Positions 2,368 to 23,067 of a stretch of 64,000 nt of DNA are shown here, in pieces. The position numbers and the translations under genes were made by a program. The stretch is from NCBI GenBank assembly GCA_002773725.1, contig PFAH01000002.1:59590-123589 (forward strand), read 5' to 3'. Position 1 is the stretch's first letter, and each line of letters opens with the position of its first letter. The notes under the pieces were generated by a model. It was not told where the DNA came from, made no database searches, and worked only from the letters and a program-made list of their open reading frames with translations. This DNA comes from Candidatus Colwellbacteria bacterium CG10_big_fil_rev_8_21_14_0_10_42_22 (lineage in GTDB: Bacteria > Patescibacteriota > Minisyncoccia > UBA6257 > Colwellbacteraceae).

Positions 2368-3848
<1,481 letters not shown>

Positions 3849-4114
3849 ATTAATTCTCTCTGAAGTTGAGCTCCAAAGGGAATAGACTTTGTCTACCTAA
3901 TGTAGATCTACCTGCCGATGGGCAGGTTTGGGACAACTAAAAAGCGTTCTGCTTTTTCTATAAGAAAATTCCACCTCTACAAAAGCTTATATATTTTGCC
4001 GAAGGGGCATAAGCATCTGTAGAGGTGGAACCTCTATTTCTTAAAGTTCTCGTATGTCAGTTGTCTTTATGGCTGTTCCATAATGTATAACAATTCATAA
4101 CCGACCGTCTCCAT

Positions 4115-4142
4115 ATTATATGAGTCAAATGTATGTCGTCAA
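4115..4142 (-). promoter_or_regulatory. Near-consensus sigma70-type promoter for the 16S rRNA (TTGACG-N16-TATAAT)
   Basis: Minus-strand reading is TTGACGacatacatttgactcaTATAAT about 250 nt upstream of the 16S 5' end; the leader contains an 11-bp stem (3971-3981 with 4018-4028). Confidence 0.5.
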
Positions 4143-4184
4143 CCCTGCCTGCCGGTAGACAAGGATCGGGGCAAGCCCCATCAG

Positions 4185-4209
4185 AAAAGCCCCCACTACG
4201 GGGGCTTTT
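4185..4209. terminator. GC hairpin (AAAAGCCCCC-actac-GGGGGCTTTT), a bidirectional intrinsic terminator downstream of the 4287-6791 gene
   Basis: Perfect 10-bp stem flanked by an A-tract and a T-tract. Confidence 0.6.
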
Positions 4210-4286
4210 CTTTTAAGAGTTCGTTTTGTCTAGGACACTCACTTTACCAACACGCCTACTCGTAGGCAATGCTGGTTCAACACAGG

Positions 4287-6791
4287 TTACACTAGTGCGG
4301 CAGACCTTTTGTCACGTCCAGCGACAAAGTAACGAACTGCAAAGTAGATCAAGAGGATGAGTAAGAACAGCCACAAGATCGGGCTCGTGAAGAAATCACG
4401 CAAGCTGTCTAGAAGTAAAGCGGTGAAAGTTCCGCCAACCCTACCGCTAATCAACTCTCCAAAAGTGTGTTCGTCAATAACGGTCACAACTTTACGAGTT
4501 CCGCTGTCTGTGTATTCCACGTCAGCAGTAAAGCGGATAGTGTCATTTACATCGACACTGTTGCTTACCTCTGTGGTAATCACGAATGAATCTTGTTCGT
4601 CCGGACTGATGGTGCCGATATTAAATGTCAGCACATCATTTCGGTCATTGTCGGCATTCGGATCTGCATCAACGAAATCAAGCTCACGAGGGAGATCAAC
4701 TAACAGTTGTGCATCGGTGAAGGTTTCATCGGTGCGATTCTCGTAAGAAACTGTGTAGCTAATCTCGCGACTATCCTCAGCGCCGATTCTGTCAGCGTCA
4801 AGGGTAATTATGAGAGCTTCTATTTCTGGCTCTTCTTCTACTTCAACCGTCCTGAAAACTTCAACAATTCGGGTAACTACGTTTACTATCGGAGCTCCAG
4901 TACGGAAACTTCTAACAAAACCGTAGTCGGTACCCTCACTGTTTCTAGCTACAGCGCGGTAGTAGTAAGTAGTTTGAGAAGCGAGACCGGTGATTCTGTA
5001 GTCGAAATCGATATTATCGTTATCGCCTATATCATCGCGAGAGGTCTCCCTGTTAAGATTAGAGACACTAGTGCCCCATTGGAACCACACATCTGTGTCG
5101 TTACCATTGGCATCAACATCGCCCTCTAGAGTAGCTTCGTTTTGTCCAACTCCAGTCGGAGCCAAAGTAGTTACATCGGGCCCTTCGTCAGATGAACTTC
5201 CACCGTTTTCGTCTGTAGTAAAGCTTCTAGTAGAACCCTCATCTTCCTCACCACCGTCATCTTCTATAAAACAACGGAAGTAATACTTAGTGTCCTCGTC
5301 GAGACCAGAAATGATCTTTGTAACTATTTCATTTGTCTCTCCATCTTGAACACTTATTTTAGAGGTCTTTTCATCTAAGTCGGTGTCTTCACCCCACTCA
5401 AACCAAACATCGGCATCGTCGCCATTAGTATCAACTTCACAGCGCAAACGGGCGCTATCTTCATCTATCCTATCGGCAGACAAGGTTGTGGCGCTTGGCT
5501 TGTCGCCTGATCCACCGCCGTTATCGTCTGTAGTGAAGTTCAAAATATTACCCCTGTCTGTGCCTTCGCTATTTTTAGCTACACAGCGGAAGTAATACTT
5601 AGTGTCCTCATCCAAGTCGTCAATGTCTATTTCAACTCTTTCGTTAGTTTCATCAGCATCAACATCAACCTTAGATGTGTCTTCATCGAGATCATCGTCG
5701 TCCTCGCCCCACTCAAACCAAACTTCAGTATCATTGCCATTAGCATCTACATCACAACGCAAGGTTGCACTATCTTCGTCTACGTCAGTAGCAGAGACAG
5801 TAGTTGCCTCGGGCGCGTCTTCTGTTGGTCCGGGATCGTCATCGTCTGTAGTGAAGTTCAAAATATTACCCCTGTCTGTGCCTTCGCTATTTTTAGCTAC
5901 ACAGCGGAAGTAATACTTAGTGTCTTCGTCGAGACCGGTAGCAACTCTAGTAAAAGAGAAGGTGTCATTGTTCTTGCCAATAATTCTTACACTGGTCTCT
6001 TTATTTAAGTTGTTGCTATTCTCACCGTACTCAAACCAAGCTTCTGTGTTGGCTCCATTGGGGTCAACATCACAATGCAATGTAGCACTGTTTCTATCTA
6101 CGTTTGTAGCAGAGACAGTGGTGGCTTCGGGTGCACCCCCTGTTGGTCCAGGATTCTCGTCACCATTAACCCTGAAACTAACTACGACGAAGCCAGCGTT
6201 TCTCTCGCCGGGCTTAATATTCCCGACTGAAAGACCGCTACTATCAAGCACGTCCTCTGGGTCGCCCGAGAGAGGAACTTCGTGCACTGGGTTCCAGTGA
6301 GTGGTCTGAACAGTAGCAAGATGATCCACATCTGTAATCTTTCCGTCTCCGGTTAAATTAACAACCACTGTTTCGGCTTTCTGGGGAGCGTTATTCGCCC
6401 AGATATAACCCCTGATAACCACTTTGCGACCATCAGATGAAATAGTCGGATATATCCTCACTTTGGCACCGTTGGCTCTATCGTCACCGGTATTATTGAA
6501 AAATAATACGGCAGCAACTTTATCACCAAGTTCGGCGTTTACGCTTTGATTTTGCCAATTATAGGTTCCTCCTTGATTAGTGGAGCTCCCTACTCGTAGA
6601 AAATCATAAGGTTGAGAGCCCTGATTAAATACGGCAGCGGCGAAAACGGTGTTAATCAACGGTAGCGCTAAGTTAGCTGCCACAAATAAACCAGTTACAA
6701 TGGCTATCAATCCTTTTCTTTGACCTTTTAACAAATTAGTCATTTGTTTTTTGTATTTATTTTTAACCTTTATGCGAGCTTTATTACCCAC
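4287..6791 (-). CDS. Large acidic cell-surface repeat protein with N-terminal signal anchor, four tandem ~106-aa repeats and a C-terminal TM plus basic tail
   Basis: 834 aa. N-terminal hydrophobic segment GLIAIVTGLFVAANLALPLINTVFA. Repeats of ...ATTVSATxVDxxSATLxCDVDxNGxDTEVWFEWGED...DTKYYFRCVAKNSEGTDRGNILNFTTDD (fibronectin-III/Ig-like feel). C-terminus ILWLFLLILLIYFAVRYFVAGRDKRSAALV. Confidence 0.65.
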   Translation of the reverse strand: MGNKARIKVKNKYKKQMTNLLKGQRKGLIAIVTGLFVAANLALPLINTVFAAAVFNQGSQPYDFLRVGSSTNQGGTYNWQNQSVNAELGDKVAAVLFFNNTGDDRANGAKVRIYPTISSDGRKVVIRGYIWANNAPQKAETVVVNLTGDGKITDVDHLATVQTTHWNPVHEVPLSGDPEDVLDSSGLSVGNIKPGERNAGFVVVSFRVNGDENPGPTGGAPEATTVSATNVDRNSATLHCDVDPNGANTEAWFEYGENSNNLNKETSVRIIGKNNDTFSFTRVATGLDEDTKYYFRCVAKNSEGTDRGNILNFTTDDDDPGPTEDAPEATTVSATDVDEDSATLRCDVDANGNDTEVWFEWGEDDDDLDEDTSKVDVDADETNERVEIDIDDLDEDTKYYFRCVAKNSEGTDRGNILNFTTDDNGGGSGDKPSATTLSADRIDEDSARLRCEVDTNGDDADVWFEWGEDTDLDEKTSKISVQDGETNEIVTKIISGLDEDTKYYFRCFIEDDGGEEDEGSTRSFTTDENGGSSSDEGPDVTTLAPTGVGQNEATLEGDVDANGNDTDVWFQWGTSVSNLNRETSRDDIGDNDNIDFDYRITGLASQTTYYYRAVARNSEGTDYGFVRSFRTGAPIVNVVTRIVEVFRTVEVEEEPEIEALIITLDADRIGAEDSREISYTVSYENRTDETFTDAQLLVDLPRELDFVDADPNADNDRNDVLTFNIGTISPDEQDSFVITTEVSNSVDVNDTIRFTADVEYTDSGTRKVVTVIDEHTFGELISGRVGGTFTALLLDSLRDFFTSPILWLFLLILLIYFAVRYFVAGRDKRSAALV
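5165..6125. repeat. Tandem near-identical DNA repeats (period about 318 bp, 3+ copies) inside the surface-protein gene
   Basis: Identical about 75-nt blocks (gtgaagttcaaaatattacccctgtctgtgccttcgctatttttagctacacagcggaagtaatacttagtgtc) start at 5533 and 5851; related copies occur near 5270 and 5908. Confidence 0.7.
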
Positions 6792-6935
6792 ATTTAAACC
6801 CTTGACGCTTTATTTTCAAGAGTTTAGGCGTAGGTCCCTCCGACTATTTTGTGCGCGAACACACATTTCGTCGGAGGGATTTTTCGGATCTTAGACAGAC
6901 CCGAATATAGCCAGGACGCTACCTACACGGAATCG

Positions 6936-8195
6936 TTACGGGATAGTCGGCTGACTACCACCACCCTCGGTGGTGGCGGACGACTCTGTCGGGATGGTGG
7001 GCTGTCCGGAGCAAGCTTCGGGGTTCTCCACCTCCGGGACGTTGAACCTATAGGAGCGACTCGTCGATGCTCCAAGGTTGTCCGTCGCCGTCACGGTGAC
7101 GGTGTGCCGACCCAAGTAGTACGGGCCATTTGCCAGAGAGAACACAACCGACCTCACGCCGTCTGGATCGGAAACGTTCGCTCCGAAGACGACCTCTGCG
7201 AAACCTTCACAATTCGTCTCCCCGAGCGTCGCCGAAATCGAGATGATTTCAGGGCCGACATTTGGGGTCGTAGTCGTGGTCGGTTCAGTGGTCGTCGGCA
7301 CCTCGGTCGTCGTCGAACCCTCGGTGGTCGTCGTTGAGCCACCACCCCCTCGGGTTGTCGGCGGTTCATAGGGCGCCGTCGACGAAGGAACCTCGCAGGT
7401 GCGGCATGGAATGCCGCACTCATTGAGAACGCCGAGCACCATCAGACGAAACTCGTCCGCTTCCCACGCTCCGGGGTGATCCAGAAGATGAGCATCGATG
7501 AGGGCGTACACCCTGTCGATGTCTCCTTGGATGTAGCCGAGCTTTTCGCTCAGCCACCCGCGAAGATTCGCGATTTCCTGGTCGTTGCCAGCCACGTCCG
7601 CCTTCAGGGCGCCAACACGCGGACCGAAGTCGAGTGTGAACCGCTCGAAGTCAGAGCGAAGGTTGGCGATGGAAGTCACGACTCCGTCGATGCGGTCGTC
7701 GACGGCGCTGATATCACCGGCATTCCGGCCGGCGATGGCGAGCGCCAACACCGTGCCAATCGTGGCGATCAAGATCGCCACGGCACCAAGACCGGCGAGG
7801 AACCGACGACCGTTCCGGCCGTGGGCCTCACCCCGCAAACGCTCATCGCGCTCGCGGTCGAGGTCTCGACGGAGCCGGTCTTCGACGGCCTGATCGGCCG
7901 CCTGGACTTGACCCCAGAGACGACCGAATGCGTTTGTGATCGCATTCGCCGTCTCTCCCGGAATCCGAGCCACGTCGGCACGGATGTCGGAGACCGCGGT
8001 CTCCACTGCATTGATACGGCGACGCGCCGACTTGTCTTTGGACATCTTGTTTCCCTTCTTTCGGGGAGCCTGACGCTTATGGTGATAACAGTAGGGCGGG
8101 TTGGTACCCACTCTAATGCGATTACCGCAGTGGGCTCCGTCCTTTCTATTACCATTGCACAGCATCAGACCCTCCTCTCTAGGGAGTGCTAGCAT
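6936..8195 (-). CDS. GC-rich island protein: cytoplasmic N-region, single TM, extracytoplasmic domain, Thr-rich linker and Ig-like C-terminal domain. The start is uncertain; the internal Met (MSKDKSARRR) at about 8045 may be the true start.
   Basis: 419 aa. TM segment FLAGLGAVAILIATIGTVLALAIAG. Linker TTTTEGSTTTEVPTTTEPTTTTTP. C-terminal beta-rich VVFSLANGPYYLGRHTVTVTATDNLGAS. The region's GC is markedly above the flanks, so overlapping opposite-strand ORFs (7476-8192+, 6849-7337+, 7154-7423-, 7585-7893+, 7769-8155-) are taken as stop-poor GC artefacts. Confidence 0.45.
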   Translation of the reverse strand: MLALPREEGLMLCNGNRKDGAHCGNRIRVGTNPPYCYHHKRQAPRKKGNKMSKDKSARRRINAVETAVSDIRADVARIPGETANAITNAFGRLWGQVQAADQAVEDRLRRDLDRERDERLRGEAHGRNGRRFLAGLGAVAILIATIGTVLALAIAGRNAGDISAVDDRIDGVVTSIANLRSDFERFTLDFGPRVGALKADVAGNDQEIANLRGWLSEKLGYIQGDIDRVYALIDAHLLDHPGAWEADEFRLMVLGVLNECGIPCRTCEVPSSTAPYEPPTTRGGGGSTTTTEGSTTTEVPTTTEPTTTTTPNVGPEIISISATLGETNCEGFAEVVFGANVSDPDGVRSVVFSLANGPYYLGRHTVTVTATDNLGASTSRSYRFNVPEVENPEACSGQPTIPTESSATTEGGGSQPTIP

Positions 8196-8240
8196 GTGCT
8201 AAGTGTCCACCATTTCTGACGGACACTTAGCACATGCTAG
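8189..8240. repeat. Perfect 20-bp inverted repeat (CTAGCATGTGCTAAGTGTCC ... GGACACTTAGCACATGCTAG) with a 12-nt loop at the right edge of GC-rich island A
   Basis: Both arms read directly; the reverse complement of the right arm equals the left arm. It overlaps the annotated ATG (8195-8193) of the island ORF. Confidence 0.8.
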
Positions 8241-8557
8241 GTGTAGATTTTTTGTCCTGCTATTTTCCTATATGAATAGGTTGATAAATGTACAAAGCAG
8301 AAAGCGACAGAATTACTGCCTTTTACCTCTTATTTGGTACTTTCTACCATATGGTAAGTTTATACCACGACTTGACTAAAAAGTCAAGACATATGTGGCC
8401 ATTACTATTCTACCTCGTTAGAAGCAGGGCGCAAGAGTACGTCCGACAGCTCCCTAGGGGTAGCTTGATTTTAACGGGGCTCAAGTAAACGGGATTGACT
8501 ATATCCCCATAATTACTGATAATAAGCCCGTTAAACCTTATGCCGTTAGAGATTATT

Positions 8558-18302: not shown

Positions 18303-18772
18303 TTTTTGTTTTTATATTTCAAATTATACGCCACGATACTAAAGGCGACGGCTACGTTTAAGGATTCTTTTATGCCTCCCATTGGAATCTCTAACACCTT
18401 GTCCGCTCTTTTTAAAACAGAAGCCGGCAATCCTCTCACCTCATGCCCCATCACTAGAGCGTATCTCTCGTTTTTAGGGATGTATTTATAAAAAGGAATT
18501 GAGTTGTCCGCCTGTTCAATCGCTATAACTTGGTAGCCATCTTTTTTAAGTTTGTCTAAAAGGCGAGTGGTAGAAACACGTTTTTCATACGACACGGATG
18601 ATTCTGAACCCAAGGAGGTTTTTAAAAATTTAGGTCTTATTCTCCCAAGTTTATCCAGGGGTGAGGGCGTAACTCCACAAAGATATATTTTCTCCACGCC
18701 TAAAGCATCGGCTGTTCTAAACACAGAGCCGGTGTTGAACATGCTTCTTACGTTGTCCAAAACTACTATCAT
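18299..18772 (-). CDS. SpoU/TrmH-family RNA 2'-O-methyltransferase
   Basis: MIVVLDNVRSMFNTGSVFRTADALGV...ALVMGHEVRGLP...LEIPMGGIKESLNVAVAFSIVAY gives SPOUT class motifs 1-3. Confidence 0.8.
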   Translation of the reverse strand: MIVVLDNVRSMFNTGSVFRTADALGVEKIYLCGVTPSPLDKLGRIRPKFLKTSLGSESSVSYEKRVSTTRLLDKLKKDGYQVIAIEQADNSIPFYKYIPKNERYALVMGHEVRGLPASVLKRADKVLEIPMGGIKESLNVAVAFSIVAYNLKYKNKK

Positions 18773-18794
18773 TTATCTAAATCATAACACTCAA

Positions 18795-18868
18795 AAATAA
18801 AACAAGACCCACGTAGGGTCTGTTAGAGGAAACGGTAGGGATGAAACCCTTTCCGTTCCCTCCAACGA
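18795..18868 (-). terminator. Two tandem hairpins then a U-tract on the minus strand: terminator for GC-island B genes
   Basis: Minus-strand GAGGGAACGG...CCGTTTCCTC nested stem, then AGACCC-tacgt-GGGTCT followed by TGTTTTATTTTT. Confidence 0.5.
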
Positions 18869-19255
18869 TTAGTCGATGGAACGAAGTCCGTTGAGGCGAC
18901 GCATCACCTCTCGTGGAATTTGGTCGAATTCTTCGATCTGAAGAATCCTTGTTCCACCGGCACAGTTGCGCTTCGTGACTCCCTTCAGGCATTCACCCTC
19001 AAGGAGAACACGGCCTGTATGACAGGAGACATCCCTCCGCAGACGGACGTCATATGCCAAGGCCCTGCCTCCAAGAAAGTTGACGGGTGGATCAAATTCC
19101 CCCTGAACTCTGCGATGGTCAGGACCATCATCAGTCCACTCGTCGCCACGAAGGCGCTGGCGCAATGCATCCAAGATGTAGCGGAAGATCATCTCTTCCT
19201 CTCCTATCGAAGGCGCATCGCCCAATCTGTAGTAGTGGGTACGTTTACTTCCCAC
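18869..19255 (-). CDS. Hypothetical Cys/His-containing protein (GC-rich island B)
   Basis: 128 aa, ...SCHTGRVLLEGECLKGVTKRNCAGG... (possible small metal-binding fold). Coding-like on the minus strand. The overlapping ORFs 18920-19333+, 18985-19170-, 19087-19296+ are treated as GC artefacts. Confidence 0.4.
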   Translation of the reverse strand: MGSKRTHYYRLGDAPSIGEEEMIFRYILDALRQRLRGDEWTDDGPDHRRVQGEFDPPVNFLGGRALAYDVRLRRDVSCHTGRVLLEGECLKGVTKRNCAGGTRILQIEEFDQIPREVMRRLNGLRSID

Positions 19256-19358
19256 GGTTTTCTTCCTTTCTTCCCCGCCGTGGGCTCTCCTTCTAGCGAC
19301 AGCGCTAGATTGTTTTTATATCACATTCAATAGTTTTGTGTAAACCCCAAAAACAAAA

Positions 19359-19395
19359 AAAAGCCGTTCCATATGGATACGGCTCCTGGGAATTG
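19359..19395 (-). terminator. Intrinsic terminator (minus strand): AGCCGT-atccatatggaa-CGGCT then T8
   Basis: The plus strand shows aaaaaaaagccgttccatatggatacggct; on minus the hairpin is followed by TTTTTTTTGTTTTTGGGG. Confidence 0.6.
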
Positions 19396-19447
19396 ATTTA
19401 AAGACTCAATTCCTACAAATTCCGGCTTTCGGAATCTGCCCCATAGG

Positions 19448-19573
19448 TCTTTGGAAGCTATTGCCTCTCATTCAACTTCTCCTTCTCTTTCTCAGGATCT
19501 GACGCTCCCTGAAGAGCGCAGAACAGAAGGAGAAGCGCGATTCCGACAAGGAACGCGACCACTCCAAAGATGA
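19448..19573 (-). CDS. Putative 41-aa single-TM micro-protein (below the ORF-track length cutoff)
   Basis: Hand translation gives MGWVIFGVVAFLVGIALLLLFCALQGASDPEKEKEKLNERQ*. It sits between the 65-aa membrane ORF and the terminator at 19359-19395. Confidence 0.3.
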
Positions 19574-19653
19574 CCCATCCCATTTCCCCTCCTCCCAAGG
19601 GTTTTAAGGAGGGGCGACCAGCGCGGTCGCCCCTCCGGGATTATGCGAATTAC

Positions 19654-19851
19654 TTACTCGTCCGGACTTCCCAACACAAGGGTGATGTAGTAAATCCCTG
19701 CCCCCACAAGGGCAAAAATCAACGAATCGACCCAAACGTTGGCTGTCGGATTCAACTCCTGCCAACCATCCACGCTCTTAACGAGCCAAACGATGAACAG
19801 GTAGAAGGCCCCGAAGAAGAAGACCCGACGGATAAGAGAATACCGTTGCAC
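19654..19851 (-). CDS. Small two-TM membrane protein (GC-rich island B)
   Basis: 65 aa: ...VFFFGAFYLFIVWLV...LIFALVGAGIYYITLVL... A candidate TTGACA-N17-TAGTGT promoter on the minus strand lies at about 19955-19983, just downstream of tRNA-Ala. Confidence 0.4.
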   Translation of the reverse strand: MQRYSLIRRVFFFGAFYLFIVWLVKSVDGWQELNPTANVWVDSLIFALVGAGIYYITLVLGSPDE

Positions 19852-19996
19852 GATACATCCTCTCTGTAATCCGCCCGCTTTTTCACCCCGGTGGTAATGT
19901 GCGTATCATAAGAATTCCAGCGCGGAACCCTGTGCCTAGACCTTCTAGACACACGTTTACACTACCATATTTGATATCCTTTGTCAATTCACTATT

Positions 19997-20070
19997 CGGT
20001 GGACCTAGGCGGAATCGAACCGCCGTCTGCGCAATGCGAATGCGCTGTTCTACCACTGAACCATAGGCCC
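19997..20070 (-). tRNA. tRNA-Ala (anticodon CGC)
   Basis: Reverse complement GGGCCTATGGTTCAGTGGTAGAACAGCGCATTCGCATTGCGCAGACGGCGGTTCGATTCCGCCTAGGTCCA folds as a cloverleaf with G3:U70, anticodon loop TTCGCAT and T-loop TTCGATT. CCA is not fully encoded (CCG). The ORF 19981-20457+ is spurious. Confidence 0.8.
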
Positions 20071-20163
20071 AAACTCATCTTACTAACCAAAGAAGTCGGA
20101 CCGCCGGCCTGCCTGCCGGTAGGCAGGGATTCGTTTATCACCAAGACTAGGAAAACCCGATTG

Positions 20164-20234
20164 TCGGGCCGGGGAGAATCGAACTCCCACTACAGGCACC
20201 CGAAGCCCGCGTACTACCACTATACTACGGCCCG
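20164..20234 (-). tRNA. tRNA-Pro (anticodon CGG)
   Basis: Reverse complement CGGGCCGTAGTATAGTGGTAGTACGCGGGCTTCGGGTGCCTGTAGTGGGAGTTCGATTCTCCCCGGCCCGA has the C1:G72 typical of bacterial tRNA-Pro, anticodon loop TTCGGGT and no encoded CCA. Confidence 0.75.
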
Positions 20235-20364
20235 AAGTGAGGAGATATATAAAAAGATCCTCTTTCTATATATTCCGAACAATCGGGACGAAAAGCAAAT
20301 TATTGGAAGACAATTTGCGACGGTCCGAACAGTAAACCATACAAACAACAAGACGTTTATTCCG

Positions 20365-21900
20365 CTATTTCACAAAGTATTTCTCTTTGATAGCGTCGTC
20401 AAGGCGGTCTTGTGCTTCTCTTGCCATCTCTTTTGCTTTGTCGGCCATCTTCTTTAACTTATTTTCGTCCATTTCCATAAGCTCTCGCGCTCTTTTAAGA
20501 AGCGCCTCTTCCGTATTAAGCTCCGGGCTATCCAAAACCTCTTCTAATAAAATCGCTAAAACATACCCCATTTGAGGACCGGGCTTCATACCCACTTCGT
20601 TCATAAGAACTTTCCCATCTATTTTTAATTGCTTCACGCCAACCGGCTCTTTCTTAGCCATCTCTATTTTGGCTTGTAAATCACGGAGGCGATATGGTTG
20701 AGCTTTAGGGACTCCTGAACCTATACGATCTGCTTCACGCAGTTTAACAAGATCATCTATATTCTCTACGCCCACTCTTCTTAAAAGACGTCTCACGCCC
20801 TTCTCCGTCACCACTTCGGGATCATAAACAAACATATGCTCACGCACTAAAAGAGCTACTTTTTTAATCATCTCTTTCGGGAACTTCAGGCGATTCATAA
20901 CTTCCTTAACTATCTTTTCTCCCAAGTATTGATGCTGATAAAAAGTCCAATCACCCTTTTTACCTTTCTTCGTTCTATCGCCTCTGGGGTCATCTTTCCA
21001 TTCACGTGTTCCAACCTTTCCAATGTCATGAAGAAGTGAGGATATGCGTAAATGAAGAGGAAATCCTTTTTCTACTGCGTATTCCAAAGCCCTCACGTTG
21101 TGTTCAAATACCGTATATATATGATGTTTGTTTTGCTCCATCCCCACCCCCTCTTGAAGCTCAGGTATCACTTGTTCTAAAAGCCCGACTTCCGACATCA
21201 ATCGAATCCCACCTCCCGCCCCATCTGTCATTAAAAGTTTTATTAATTCATCCCGTATTCTTTCGGGCGCTATTTCCGCCAAAGTTTCTGCCTGTTTTTG
21301 AATGGCCTTTTTTGTTTTTGCTTCAATATCAAACCCAAAACGAGCAGCAAACCTAACCGCCCTCATCATTCTCAAAGAATCCTCACCGAACCTATCCTCA
21401 GGACTACCCACCGCTTTAATGATGCCGGCCCTAATATCAGCTTGTCCACCATACGGGTCTATGATGATTTGCTCGTCCGACACGATGTCCAGGGCGATAG
21501 CGTTCATCGTAAAATCTCTACGCGAAAGATCTTCTTCAATCGTGTCTGTGAACTCCACCGCATCGGGATGTCTATGGTCTGAATAACTATTTTCTTTCCT
21601 AAAGGTGGTTACTTCGACTATGTCTAGTCCTTCTTCTTCGGAACCCGTCTTCACTAACACGGTTCCAAACTCATTTTCATAAACGCTCTCGGGGAAAATT
21701 TCTTGAATATCTTTCGGTTTAGCGCTCGTCGCGATATCCCAATCCTTAGGATTTTCTCCCATCAAAAAATCCCTCACGCATCCACCAACTAAATATGCTG
21801 AAAAACCAGCCTCTTTAAGAGCTTTTGCAAGTTCTTTAACTTCTTGAGGTAGTTCCATAGAAGTTTCTGATTCCCACAATTTACGTTCTCCTTTCATTAT
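20365..21900 (-). CDS. cca: CCA-adding enzyme (tRNA nucleotidyltransferase with HD domain). The start is probably at the internal Met (21900 or 21858), not 21990.
   Basis: ...GFSAYLVGGCVRDFLMGENPKDWDIATSA... (Pol-beta NT head), ...RDFTMNA..., an HD motif (...LLHDIGK...) and a C-terminal tRNA-binding region. The annotated N-terminus at 21990 would overlap the tRNA-like fragment. Confidence 0.8.
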   Translation of the reverse strand: MMKGERKLWESETSMELPQEVKELAKALKEAGFSAYLVGGCVRDFLMGENPKDWDIATSAKPKDIQEIFPESVYENEFGTVLVKTGSEEEGLDIVEVTTFRKENSYSDHRHPDAVEFTDTIEEDLSRRDFTMNAIALDIVSDEQIIIDPYGGQADIRAGIIKAVGSPEDRFGEDSLRMMRAVRFAARFGFDIEAKTKKAIQKQAETLAEIAPERIRDELIKLLMTDGAGGGIRLMSEVGLLEQVIPELQEGVGMEQNKHHIYTVFEHNVRALEYAVEKGFPLHLRISSLLHDIGKVGTREWKDDPRGDRTKKGKKGDWTFYQHQYLGEKIVKEVMNRLKFPKEMIKKVALLVREHMFVYDPEVVTEKGVRRLLRRVGVENIDDLVKLREADRIGSGVPKAQPYRLRDLQAKIEMAKKEPVGVKQLKIDGKVLMNEVGMKPGPQMGYVLAILLEEVLDSPELNTEEALLKRARELMEMDENKLKKMADKAKEMAREAQDRLDDAIKEKYFVK

Positions 21901-21921
21901 ATATGAGATTAATTTATACGG

Positions 21922-21982
21922 TCCGCGCGGGAGGAATCGAACCTCCAACCTTCTCCTTAAGAGGGAGCTGCTCTGCCGATTG
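21922..21982 (-). pseudogene. tRNA-Lys(CTT)-like 3' two-thirds (anticodon arm, T-arm, acceptor 3' strand) lacking a matching 5' acceptor and D-stem
   Basis: Reverse complement ...CAATCGGCAGAGCAGCTCCCTCTTAAGGAGAAGGTTGGAGGTTCGATTCCTCCCGCGCGGA parallels the neighbouring intact tRNA-Lys from the D-loop onward. No CCGCGCG / GCTC partner was found upstream; the 5' side is occupied by a 28-bp palindrome. Confidence 0.4.
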
Positions 21983-21983
21983 T

Positions 21984-22011
21984 CCGCCAAAGGCGGATCC
22001 GCCTTTGGCGG
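21984..22011. repeat. Perfect 28-bp palindrome CCGCCAAAGGCGGA|TCCGCCTTTGGCGG centred on GGATCC
   Basis: Read directly. Each half is itself a hairpin (CCGCC-AAA-GGCGG). Confidence 0.8.
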
Positions 22012-22031
22012 AAGCTATTCAACGCACGCTG

Positions 22032-22104
22032 TCCGTCTCCTGGGAATCGAACCCAGAACCTTCGGCTTAAGAGGCCGCTGCTCTGCCAGTTGAGCTAGAG
22101 ACGG
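22032..22104 (-). tRNA. tRNA-Lys (anticodon CTT)
   Basis: Reverse complement CCGTCTCTAGCTCAACTGGCAGAGCAGCGGCCTCTTAAGCCGAAGGTTCTGGGTTCGATTCCCAGGAGACGGA has a 7-bp acceptor, GCTC/GAGC D-stem, CTCTTAA anticodon loop and TTCGATT T-loop. Confidence 0.8.
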
Positions 22105-22105
22105 A

Positions 22106-22180
22106 TGGTGTCCCCGGAGGGATTCGAACCCCCAACGGCTGGTTCGAAGCCAGCAATGATATCCATTTCACCACGGGGAC
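22106..22180 (-). tRNA. tRNA-Arg (anticodon TCG), CCA encoded
   Basis: Reverse complement GTCCCCGTGGTGAAATGGATATCATTGCTGGCTTCGAACCAGCCGTTGGGGGTTCGAATCCCTCCGGGGACACCA. It lies 1 nt from tRNA-Lys. The ORF 22105-22491+ is spurious. Confidence 0.8.
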
Positions 22181-22264
22181 AAACGATGTTCCCGCAAGCA
22201 ATCGCGCCACGGGGACTTTGGCTTCGCGCATTCACGATAGCAAAATCCCATACTACTAATCAAT

Positions 22265-22621
22265 ACAAAACACCCCGACTTGGGTCGGGGCGTTTTGGTT
22301 TCCACTCGGTGCCTTCTCTCATGAGTCTGCGAAGGGGGGTTCGCGGACTCATGAGAGAAGCGGAGAGAGGACGAACGAGATTATCATTCGTTCCCTCTCC
22401 GTTGAAGTTTGTGGGGTGGTGGATGGACGTTAATCCACTGCGCTTTGACGCCAAGCAGGCGTGGGAGAACTTGTTCCCACAGGGACCATAACTAGCGTGT
22501 GGTCGTAACCACACGGCGCTCTAGCCGTCCTCTATCCACCACCCCGGCTAATTAATCCGAATATTCAGATGAATTAGTCGAAGTAGTGGAGCCACTCCAT
22601 CGTTTCAAATTTTCAGGGTAC
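22265..22621 (-). ncRNA. Candidate structured RNA of about 350 nt and unknown class, running from a consensus promoter to an intrinsic terminator (hairpin 22274-22290 plus U-tract)
   Basis: Contains a 12+5-bp closing helix (GGGGUGGUGGAU...GGACG / CGUCC...AUCCACCACCCC, 22413-22547) enclosing a multi-branch junction with two internal hairpins. Two further long hairpins follow (22318-22366 and about 22370-22410), then CCCCGAC-ccaa-GUCGGGG-UGUUUUG. The only long ORF (22260-22514, GTG start, 84 aa) runs through the hairpins into the terminator and is not protein-like. Confidence 0.45.
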
Positions 22622-22627
22622 ACGTGC

Positions 22628-22656
22628 ATTATAACACAAGATATCCATTTTGTCAA
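22628..22656 (-). promoter_or_regulatory. Perfect consensus promoter: TTGACA - 17 nt - (TGT)TATAAT on the minus strand
   Basis: Reverse complement of 22626-22660 is GGTGTTGACAAAATGGATATCTTGTGTTATAATGC: -35 and -10 hexamers both match consensus, the spacer is 17 nt, and TGn (extended -10) is present. Confidence 0.6.
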
Positions 22657-22692
22657 CACCTCTACTCTTTGCTCTCTATTCTCCAACAAAAA

Positions 22693-22712
22693 CCGCCCCA
22701 CATGGGGCGGAT
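22693..22712 (-). terminator. Intrinsic terminator of the 22735-23067 gene (CCGCCCCA-catg-TGGGGCGG then TTTTTGTTGG on minus)
   Basis: Read directly. Confidence 0.6.
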
Positions 22713-22734
22713 GTCTTTCTATATTAAGAGTTTC

Positions 22735-23067
22735 TTAAGAAAGAATATCTCTCATCGCCAACATCTCGTTTCTCAACCTGTCATTTAGGTCATCGTAAAA
22801 AGTCGGCATAGCAGAAGCATAAAGCTCTATTTTTTCTTCCATCTCCTCCGGCCTAGCCATTGATTCTTTTAAGTCCTTAAGTTGTTCGGTGGTTAACCTA
22901 TTAAGAAGCGTGTCTAGCACAATATCGTCAAAGTGGTCCCTGATTTTTTCTGCTAACACTTTTTTCTTTTTTTCATCAAGGCCCCGTAATTCAGAACTAT
23001 CAAGCACAACTGCTATCATGCTATCAAAGTATCTTTGTACATTTTTTTCTGTTAAATCTTCTGTCAT
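22735..23067 (-). CDS. Hypothetical small alpha-helical acidic protein
   Basis: 110 aa with no recognisable motif. It is adjacent (2-nt gap) to the upstream 688-aa gene and followed by a terminator. Confidence 0.5.
   Translation of the reverse strand: MTEDLTEKNVQRYFDSMIAVVLDSSELRGLDEKKKKVLAEKIRDHFDDIVLDTLLNRLTTEQLKDLKESMARPEEMEEKIELYASAMPTFYDDLNDRLRNEMLAMRDILS

Follow-up and report, generated by a model that had tools for sequence, protein, structure and literature searches.

What kind of locus is the island rich in guanine plus cytosine (GC) that lies between the tRNA-Ala and SpoU genes of a Candidatus Colwellbacteria genome? The island occupies positions 18795-19998 of the stretch of 64,000 nucleotides (nt) analysed here (the window), and its host is a member of the Patescibacteria (candidate phyla radiation, CPR) with a genome of about 42% GC. 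We regard it as probable, if well short of assured, that the island is a resident accessory locus of one clade of Colwellbacteria-like Patescibacteria, situated at a recombination hotspot between tRNA-Ala and the gene of a SpoU/TrmL-type methyltransferase, and made up of two units on the minus strand. Each unit runs from a promoter to a terminator; unit 1 holds the open reading frames (ORFs) ORF1 and ORF2, and unit 2 holds ORF3. The category is an ordinary one, orphan small proteins in a variable interval, and the island is neither an artefact nor a decayed integrative element. What is unusual is that conserved signals surround coding bodies that cannot be aligned, that the phylogeny of ORF3 is discordant, and that the mRNAs are hyper-structured and appear to carry a dual constraint.

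The original prediction, made from the letters of this DNA, described the segment as markedly GC-rich, and this was borne out; its composition does look foreign. Across 18800-20000, GC content in 300-nt windows is 0.49-0.55, compared with 0.38-0.44 (about 40%) in the flanking SpoU, DUF192 and CCA enzyme genes and 0.424 in the whole 64-kb window. GC content at third codon positions (GC3) is 0.54-0.67 in the island ORFs of the window versus 0.37-0.41 in neighbouring genes; with the relatives included, the ranges are 0.54-0.78 for island ORFs and 0.22-0.53 for host genes, the extreme being lineage L134 (ORF3 0.615, SpoU 0.22). The features that the prediction had placed in the segment are also there: a promoter abutting the tRNA (19959-19987, about 4 nt from where it had been put), two intrinsic terminators (with small shifts in coordinates), a 65-residue protein with two transmembrane (TM) helices, a 41-residue peptide with one, whose TM character is confirmed by Kyte-Doolittle hydropathy over 19 residues (KD19), and a 128-residue ORF with the stated C-H...C...C residues. 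As it had also noted, no integrase is left among the ORFs of 18795-19998.

The case for a resident locus begins with the relatives. Scans with SpoU found five related lineages (L004, L005, L055, L056 and L134; about six in all), and four further assemblies (L135, L137, L138 and L141) are of the same species as L004. The SpoU protein of the window is 76% identical to those of L004 ("Patescibacteria group bacterium") and L005 (a Candidatus Colwellbacteria metagenome-assembled genome), and the window, L004 and L005 have a common gene order: tRNA-Arg/Lys, CCA enzyme, tRNA-Pro, tRNA-Ala, GC-rich island, SpoU, DUF192, GAPDH. A GC-rich segment (51-62% GC) stands directly upstream of SpoU in all five related lineages and follows tRNA-Ala in both lineages whose contig covers the upstream DNA. 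The prediction had suggested looking for relatives in which tRNA-Ala is followed directly by SpoU, and there are none among the five. More distant CPR genomes (SpoU identity of 58% or less) are without the segment.

What these islands share is chiefly a regulatory skeleton. The non-coding blocks that align are promoter P1 with its leader, the structure between ORF1 and ORF2, terminator T1, promoter P2 with its 5' untranslated region (UTR), and a 3' stem-loop with terminator T2; they are 80-86% identical to those of relatives, several contain compensatory pairs, and L004 and L055 have the skeleton of the window. The ORF bodies of the window, compared with those of the relatives, gave no alignment at the DNA or the protein level. 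The skeleton is itself a mosaic: the nearest P2 and UTR are those of L055, but the 3' stem-loop has its matches in L004 and L134 and none in L055. The ORF3 sequences of L055 and L134 are 74.5% identical, compared with 62.7% for SpoU and 65.1% for GAPDH, and those of L004 and L055 are 30% identical, compared with 77% for SpoU; between L055 and L134, synonymous divergence (dS) is 1.43 for ORF3 and saturated for SpoU. The phylogeny of ORF3 is discordant with that of the host, which suggests that lineages have exchanged or recombined the ORF3 unit.

One strain shows what a true insertion at this site looks like. In L141 (GCA_043819735.1, JBDREL010000005.1), a 5.0-kb integrative element (2970-7990) sits exactly at the 3' end of tRNA-Ala(cgc), with the crossover core GTCCAC. 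It encodes a large serine recombinase of 506 residues (with the domains Resolvase, Recombinase and Zn_ribbon_recom) together with a DUF3800 protein and several orphans, its GC content is 33-44%, it has nothing in common with the island, and the tRNA-Ala rebuilt by its insertion no longer encodes CCA. The tRNA-Ala(cgc) of the window lies at 19998-20070 on the minus strand (ARAGORN; 69.4 bits in Rfam), and alignment of attL, attR and the empty site identifies its 3' end (..GGTCCACC) as the attB crossover site of the L141 element, empty in the window. The element inserts between tRNA-Ala and P1, at a junction that is still empty in L004 and in the window, and the island is thus not cargo but the flank that resides beside the attB site. 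A GC-rich island beside a tRNA is alone insufficient to call an integrated element; here the comparison of strains separated the element and its attB site from the resident island. On the opposite side, the extended -10 of the SpoU gene's own promoter (TGTTATGAT, read from the sequence at 18781-18789, minus strand) directly follows T2 and marks the native edge of the island; L004 and L055 keep it, and L005 and L056 do so in part. The interval between tRNA-Ala and SpoU is a genuine hotspot of flux.

The features of both units lie on the minus strand. In unit 1, P1 (19987 to 19959; TTGACA-N17-TGGTAGTGT) begins 10 nt past tRNA-Ala and, as read from the sequence, combines a perfect -35 with a TG-extended -10 (TGG-TAGTGT); a promoter scan overlooked it, TAGTGT matching at 3 of 6 positions. 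It is kept in L004 and L135 as TTGACA-N17-TGGTAACGT. The leader folds into a hairpin (GUGUCUAGA-AGG-UCUAGGCAC; 19929-19955) in which CUAGA/UCUAG of the window corresponds to CUGGA-AGG-UCCAG in L004, a compensatory change from A-U to G-C. ORF1 (19654-19851; 65 residues) starts with GTG at 19851, has a Shine-Dalgarno (SD) sequence (AGAGAGGA) 7 nt upstream and was called as a gene by the Joint Genome Institute (JGI); its two hydrophobic helices span about residues 9-25 and 40-60, with a maximum KD19 of 2.01, and a word-seeded search of 5.8 billion clusters returned only its self match.

A three-helix structure (19577-19641; fold z-score -3.43) starts 13 nt past the ORF1 stop codon. It opens with a clamp hairpin of 12 bp (GGAGGGGCGACC/GGUCGCCCCUCC); next comes a small hairpin, CCCUU/GAGGG, with the SD of ORF2 inside it, and an outer helix, UCCC/GGGA, surrounds the ORF2 AUG. 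The region is 80% identical to L004 over 60/70 nt aligned, which has this architecture with compensatory changes (its clamp is GGAGGGGUAGC/GCUACCCCUCC and its SD hairpin CCCUC/GAGGG), and the composite motif GGAGGGG...CCCCUCC...GGAGGGG occurs once in the window, where 0.00 occurrences are expected by chance. ORF2 (19458-19583) has 41 residues from ATG 19583, or 46 from TTG 19598, and consists of one TM helix (residues 3-24; KD19 3.08) and a charged tail (DPEKEKEKLNERQ). Positional counterparts of 37-41 residues with one TM helix occur in L004, L005 and L056, with a partial one in L055, and those of L005 and L056 are homologous (E 8e-9). In the islands of the window, L004, L005 and L056, KD19 reaches at least 2.0 only in sense-strand ORFs at the ORF1 and ORF2 positions, and none of the remaining 50 or so island ORFs of at least 30 residues comes up to 1.6. 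The unit closes with a 3' UTR (19354-19439; fold z-score -4.56) of two hairpins followed by T1 (AGCCGUAUCCA-UA-UGGAACGGCU + U8; 19387-19354), which is kept in L004 and L055.

We propose that P1 drives a bicistronic RNA of about 600 nt, which may be joined by read-through from the tRNA operon, as there is no terminator between the two. The SD of ORF1 appears accessible. Because the SD and AUG of ORF2 are predicted to be shut within the conserved three-helix structure, its translation probably depends on coupling to ORF1 or on opening of the structure. Together, ORF1 and ORF2 probably provide a pair of small proteins of the inner membrane.

One possibility is that unit 1 works in the manner of a type I toxin-antitoxin (TA) system, with ORF2, and perhaps ORF1, encoding a membrane-damaging peptide on a stable folded mRNA with a sequestered SD, and a small antisense or overlapping RNA neutralizing it. 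ORF2, being hydrophobic, shorter than 60 residues and built of one TM helix and a charged tail, would suit such a role, as would the predicted enclosure of its SD and AUG in a hairpin set that L004 keeps by compensatory changes. The unit-1 transcript is strongly structured, the peptide evolves fast yet stays hydrophobic, and the locus is accessory and varies between genomes. However, the plus strand has no convincing antisense promoter (the best matches agree at 9/12 positions, with 8 of them compared with 7.5 +/- 3.0 in shuffles), no match was found to Hok, Ldr, Fst, TxpA or similar Pfam and NCBIfam models, two TM ORFs per operon are atypical, and L056 is without the hairpin between ORF1 and ORF2. 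We consider a type I system of this kind rather unlikely.

Unit 2 of the resident locus has a layout of its own. P2 (TTTACA-N18-TATAAA, read from the sequence at 19344 to 19315) has counterparts in L055 and L134 with the spacing TTTACA-N17-TATAAA. The 5' UTR (19251-19309) is predicted to fold into two hairpins, CUAGCG-CUGU-CGCUAG and then CCCACGG...CCGUGGG, the second of which has a purine-rich SD in its loop and the GUG start of ORF3 in its 3' arm; both hairpins occur in L055 and L134 with compensatory changes. P2 and the UTR together are 86% identical to L055 over 86/97 nt and are recognisable in L134. ORF3 (18869-19255) encodes a soluble protein of 128 residues, or of 107 from an alternative ATG at 19192 (the form called by JGI), with Cys78-His79, Cys89 and Cys98. 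Directly after its stop codon comes the 3' stem-loop (18822-18866), which has a 14-bp lower stem and an apical AAGGGUUUCAUCCCUA. Its apex, AAGGGUU(U/A)CAUCCCUA, is identical in L004 and L134 bar one W position, its lower stem covaries (ACGG/CCGU versus AUAG/CUAU), and it does not occur in L055. The terminator scan and the fold place T2 (AGACCC-UACGU-GGGUCU) at 18821-18805, with a U-run to about 18797; the block of stem-loop and T2 is 86% identical to L004, and the fold of 18798-18872 has a z-score of -6.22. A 17-mer of the hairpin apex has 6 exact matches in viral contigs, a number that is by rough estimate within chance for such a collection. P2 would give a monocistronic RNA of about 500 nt that encodes a small soluble orphan and ends in the stem-loop and terminator; a start codon in a stem and an SD in a loop suggest low or conditional initiation.

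The contents of the islands differ among relatives. L004 has an ORF1 of 63/71 residues with one TM helix, an ORF2 of 37 with one, and an ORF3 of 184; L005 has an ORF1 of 65 with two TM helices, an ORF2 of 40 with one, and no ORF3. In L056, only the C-terminal end of ORF1 is on the contig, ORF2 has 41 residues and one TM helix, and there is no ORF3. In L055, ORF1 is not on the contig, ORF2 is partial and ORF3 has 204 residues. L134 has neither ORF1 nor ORF2 and an ORF3 of 204 residues, in a different upstream neighbourhood with no tRNA nearby. L134 also has a second GC-rich (55%) and strongly structured segment (z-scores of -4.8 to -6.1) at 6150-6750, between SpoU and GAPDH, which takes the place of the DUF192 gene of other genomes; it contains a called ORF of 120 residues without a Pfam match, and it has no Rfam match.

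Predicted structure extends over the coding regions. Compared with dinucleotide shuffles, the sense transcript of unit 1 has a minimum free energy of -221.6 kcal/mol (z-score -5.63; antisense -174.7, z-score -5.73) and that of unit 2 has -224.0 kcal/mol (z-score -7.84; antisense -188.5, z-score -5.09), while the SpoU coding sequence, as a control, has -103.9 kcal/mol and a z-score of +0.99. All 300-nt windows over 18700-20050 have z-scores of -3.2 to -5.6, the flanking genes scatter around 0, and the background of the 64 kb has a mean of -0.86 and a standard deviation of 1.8 (213 windows). The islands of L004, L005, L055 and L134 have the same excess. The ORF3 genes of L055 and L134 allowed a consensus-structure test, in which energy was compared with column shuffles that keep codon position and conservation: their coding sequence gave a z-score of -5.1 in the sense and -2.35 in the antisense direction, and the controls SpoU and GAPDH gave -2.5 and -1.4. 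The RNAalifold consensus for this pair includes 26 double-sided changes. These genes appear to be under constraint on both the protein and the mRNA structure.

At the protein level, the positional ORF3 family (P0003, P0004 and P0005, which come from L004, L055 and L134 taken together) comprises proteins of 184-204 residues, always stands upstream of SpoU and holds together at E 2e-10; apart from the non-homologous ORF3 of the window, these three are its only members in databases. Between L055 and L134, the ratio of nonsynonymous to synonymous divergence (dN/dS) is 0.11, and the family is truly coding and under strong purifying selection. The ORF3 of the window has no detectable homology to it (BLASTP E 0.12-0.64; hhalign probability 2.9%). 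That it might be a frameshifted member of the P0003 family was rejected, six-frame tblastn being empty. The window ORF3 does share the position, a homologous promoter and 5' UTR, the start context and the 3' stem-loop of the family. On comparison of the sequences, it would be either a replaced body or one diverged past recognition, and from its conserved expression signals we infer that it is translated.

Several findings weigh against this reading of the island. The length of ORF3 is within chance (when the island was shuffled 1000 times with its dinucleotides kept, the probability of a longest ORF of at least 128 residues was 0.195), and an ORF of 137 residues occurs on the antisense strand. 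All three ORFs of the window are orphans confined to one population that is 100% identical: ORF1-ORF3 have no significant homologue in Pfam, PHROGs, NCBIfam, PADLOC, PDB sequences or the search of 5.8 billion clusters. For ORF3, that search and an exhaustive HMMER search of 1.84 billion representatives gave self matches only, bar one; this single non-self match, P0002 (E 2.5e-20), is a 552-residue tandem repeat of a 51-residue unit with 10 summed partial matches and was rejected as spurious. ORF3 likewise has no match in Pfam, PHROG, NCBIfam, PADLOC or PDB sequences. The AlphaFold2 models have low confidence, with a predicted local distance difference test (pLDDT) score of 39.6 for ORF3 and 35.2 for the three-member family. 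The lower dS of ORF3 could reflect RNA-structure constraint on synonymous sites or differences in rate, and not recent transfer. Moreover, the evidence of covariation comes from only 2-3 sequences, with about six lineages known, and RNAalifold is biased towards compatible pairs. Over 2.1-2.5 kb, the organism's four other assemblies show 100% identity and hence no polymorphism, and since the ORFs are orphans as well, their coding status must rest on comparative context.

An alternative that builds on the same findings is that the island is partly or wholly a non-coding structured RNA, its ORFs, and ORF3 above all, being by-products of GC-richness or a decayed gene in a conserved frame. The chance-level ORF length, the antisense ORF and an ORF3 without homologues or a confident fold agree with this, as do the fold z-scores of the two transcripts (-5.6 and -7.8) and the better conservation of the non-coding parts than of the ORF bodies. 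However, the dN/dS of the positional homologues speaks for a protein, SD sequences and start codons keep their places, and no positions other than those of ORF1 and ORF2 have TM helices. Rfam 15 has no match either: only the tRNAs passed its gathering threshold, a search of 18500-22800 at E <= 10 gave no credible hit, and the relatives gave none. We judge a non-coding island to be unlikely.

The suggestion that the segment is what remains of an integrative element or prophage inserted at the tRNA-Ala 3' end, its surviving cargo being holin-like proteins and a metal-binding protein, has its own attractions: the composition is atypical, the island adjoins a tRNA that is a proven integration site in the clade (L141), and the phylogeny of the ORF3 family is discordant with that of the host. 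This view was put forward in the original prediction, and it is largely not supported, whether the insertion is taken as recent or as decayed. The island has neither an integrase nor an att repeat, the repeat of the tRNA-Ala 3' end that the prediction had proposed to look for being absent from a repeat search of 18600-20300, and every close relative has the island, with a shared regulatory skeleton. The real element of L141 sits between the tRNA and the island, has a GC content of 33-44% and has nothing in common with the island, and the ORF3 unit of L134 adjoins SpoU with no tRNA nearby. Viral, plasmid, PHROG and holin similarity are lacking as well: ORF1, ORF3 and the ORF3 family have no relatives in viral contigs, blastn of the island against phage and plasmid collections was empty, and the small membrane proteins, likened to holins, have no Pfam or PHROG holin match and no lysis gene nearby. 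The C-H...C...C spacing, which had been taken to mark a small metal-binding protein, fits no known metal-binding family in Pfam, NCBIfam or PDB, and PADLOC found no defence homology in the island. Assignments to phage, holin, defence or metal-binding functions thus have no support, and a decayed integrated element is quite improbable.

Least probable is that a bacteriocin or toxin and small membrane immunity proteins diversify here under conflict between strains. Coding bodies are replaced or diverge fast in conserved flanks, with horizontal discordance, and small TM proteins occur together with a small soluble protein that contains Cys. However, the neighbourhood has no leader or signal peptide, no transporter and no processing enzyme, and L005 and L056 have the TM pair without ORF3 while L134 has ORF3 without the TM pair. 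The separate occurrence of the two parts shows that they are not obligately linked.

Returning to the resident accessory locus, we suppose that the regulatory skeleton is inherited and that the coding bodies either evolve apart very rapidly or pass from one lineage to another. In an AT-rich cell, a GC-rich fold probably makes the RNAs more stable, and we infer that selection acts on the mRNA structure itself, favouring stable RNA and translation that is low and gated. Our leading guess as to its role is that the locus encodes toxin-like or stress-related small membrane peptides under tight translational control. Patescibacteria genomes are tiny, and accessory DNA that is retained in them is likely to be important to the organism. 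The dual constraint on protein and RNA is seen in the one pair in which it could be tested (L055/L134). If it is general, it would suggest that the accessory small-protein genes of these episymbionts are selected for control or stability at the RNA level, and the islands would provide candidate small peptides that act on membranes, in a phylum whose genes of this type are uncharacterised. A bolder idea, which we think is probably wrong, is that the island belongs to an unrecognised Patescibacteria class of small, GC-rich, hyper-structured cassettes of coding sequence plus RNA, in which the mRNA fold is selected alongside the protein and bodies are exchanged within fixed frames of promoter and terminator; if true, the locus would in effect be either a selfish or addiction-type module centred on RNA or a system of dual-function RNA, without a described counterpart. 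A literature search turned up nothing relevant.

Other parts of the window also attracted attention. At 20071-20162, a 92-nt spacer with a GC-rich palindrome (CCTGCCTGCC/GGTAGGCAGG) separates tRNA-Ala from tRNA-Pro, whereas the two genes abut in L004 and L005. L005 has an additional tRNA-Arg(ccg) (5264-5339), 10 nt past tRNA-Ala and before the GC-rich island, which occurs neither in the window nor in L004. Just upstream of tRNA-Arg/tRNA-Lys, at 22260-22656 on the minus strand, is a candidate structured RNA that is not annotated. Its promoter is a perfect TTGACA-N17-TATAAT (22656 to 22628), its transcript would have about 370 nt and 53-55% GC, and its terminator lies at 22297-22266; its fold z-score of -8 to -10 is the strongest of the whole window, and it has no Rfam match at E <= 10. 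Its 3' half, with a long hairpin (CUCUCAUGAGUCCGCGAACCCCCCUUCGCAGACUCAUGAGAG), GGCACCGAGUGGAAA and the terminator, is kept in L005 and L004 with compensatory changes. At 21930-21985 on the minus strand, a tRNA-like match that stays below threshold (24.6 bits; gathering score 29) adjoins tRNA-Lys and overlaps the N-terminal extension of the 541-residue, TTG-start ORF of the CCA enzyme; this extension is probably not coding, as other assemblies call the gene at 504 residues. An orphan ORF of 419 residues with a Thr/Pro-rich linker (6936-8195, minus strand) fills the island that has the highest GC content in the window (6801-8260; mean 59% GC, peak 69%); this island is strongly structured only at its high-coordinate end and in the adjacent flank (z-scores of -4.5 at 7801-8100 and -7.2 at 8101-8400).

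How does the island compare with known systems? Type I TA loci (e.g., hok/sok, tisB/istR-1 and fst/RNAII) resemble it in having a hydrophobic peptide of 60 residues or fewer, a highly folded mRNA and a sequestered ribosome-binding site (predicted for the island), and in being accessory and fast-evolving. Unlike them, the island has two membrane ORFs and a separate unit for a soluble protein, no similarity to known toxin families and no identified antitoxin RNA. Dual-function RNAs such as RNAIII/hld and SgrS/SgrT also join short ORFs to strong structure, which is conserved in the ORF3 family. The structure of the island transcripts, however, spans whole coding regions of 0.4-0.6 kb, and no regulatory target or base-pairing function is known for them. 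With its 65 residues and two TM helices, ORF1 is similar to class II holins and pinholins, but no endolysin, spanin or phage gene is near the island, and searches of PHROG and Pfam holin models returned nothing.

Integron cassettes, in which the ORF is followed by an attC hairpin, share with the island an exchangeable ORF body and then a conserved imperfect hairpin. In contrast to cassettes, each unit of the island has its own promoter and terminator, neither an IntI integrase nor attI was seen, and the hairpin apex is not attC-like on informal judgement. The island comes close in setting to tRNA-linked islets and serine-recombinase hotspots: it adjoins a tRNA, its composition is atypical, its content varies among close relatives, and its interval is used by a serine-recombinase element in L141. 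It differs from them in having no recombinase or att sites of its own, in being present in all close relatives, in lying outside the insertion point, and in having promoters and terminators that are inherited with the chromosome.

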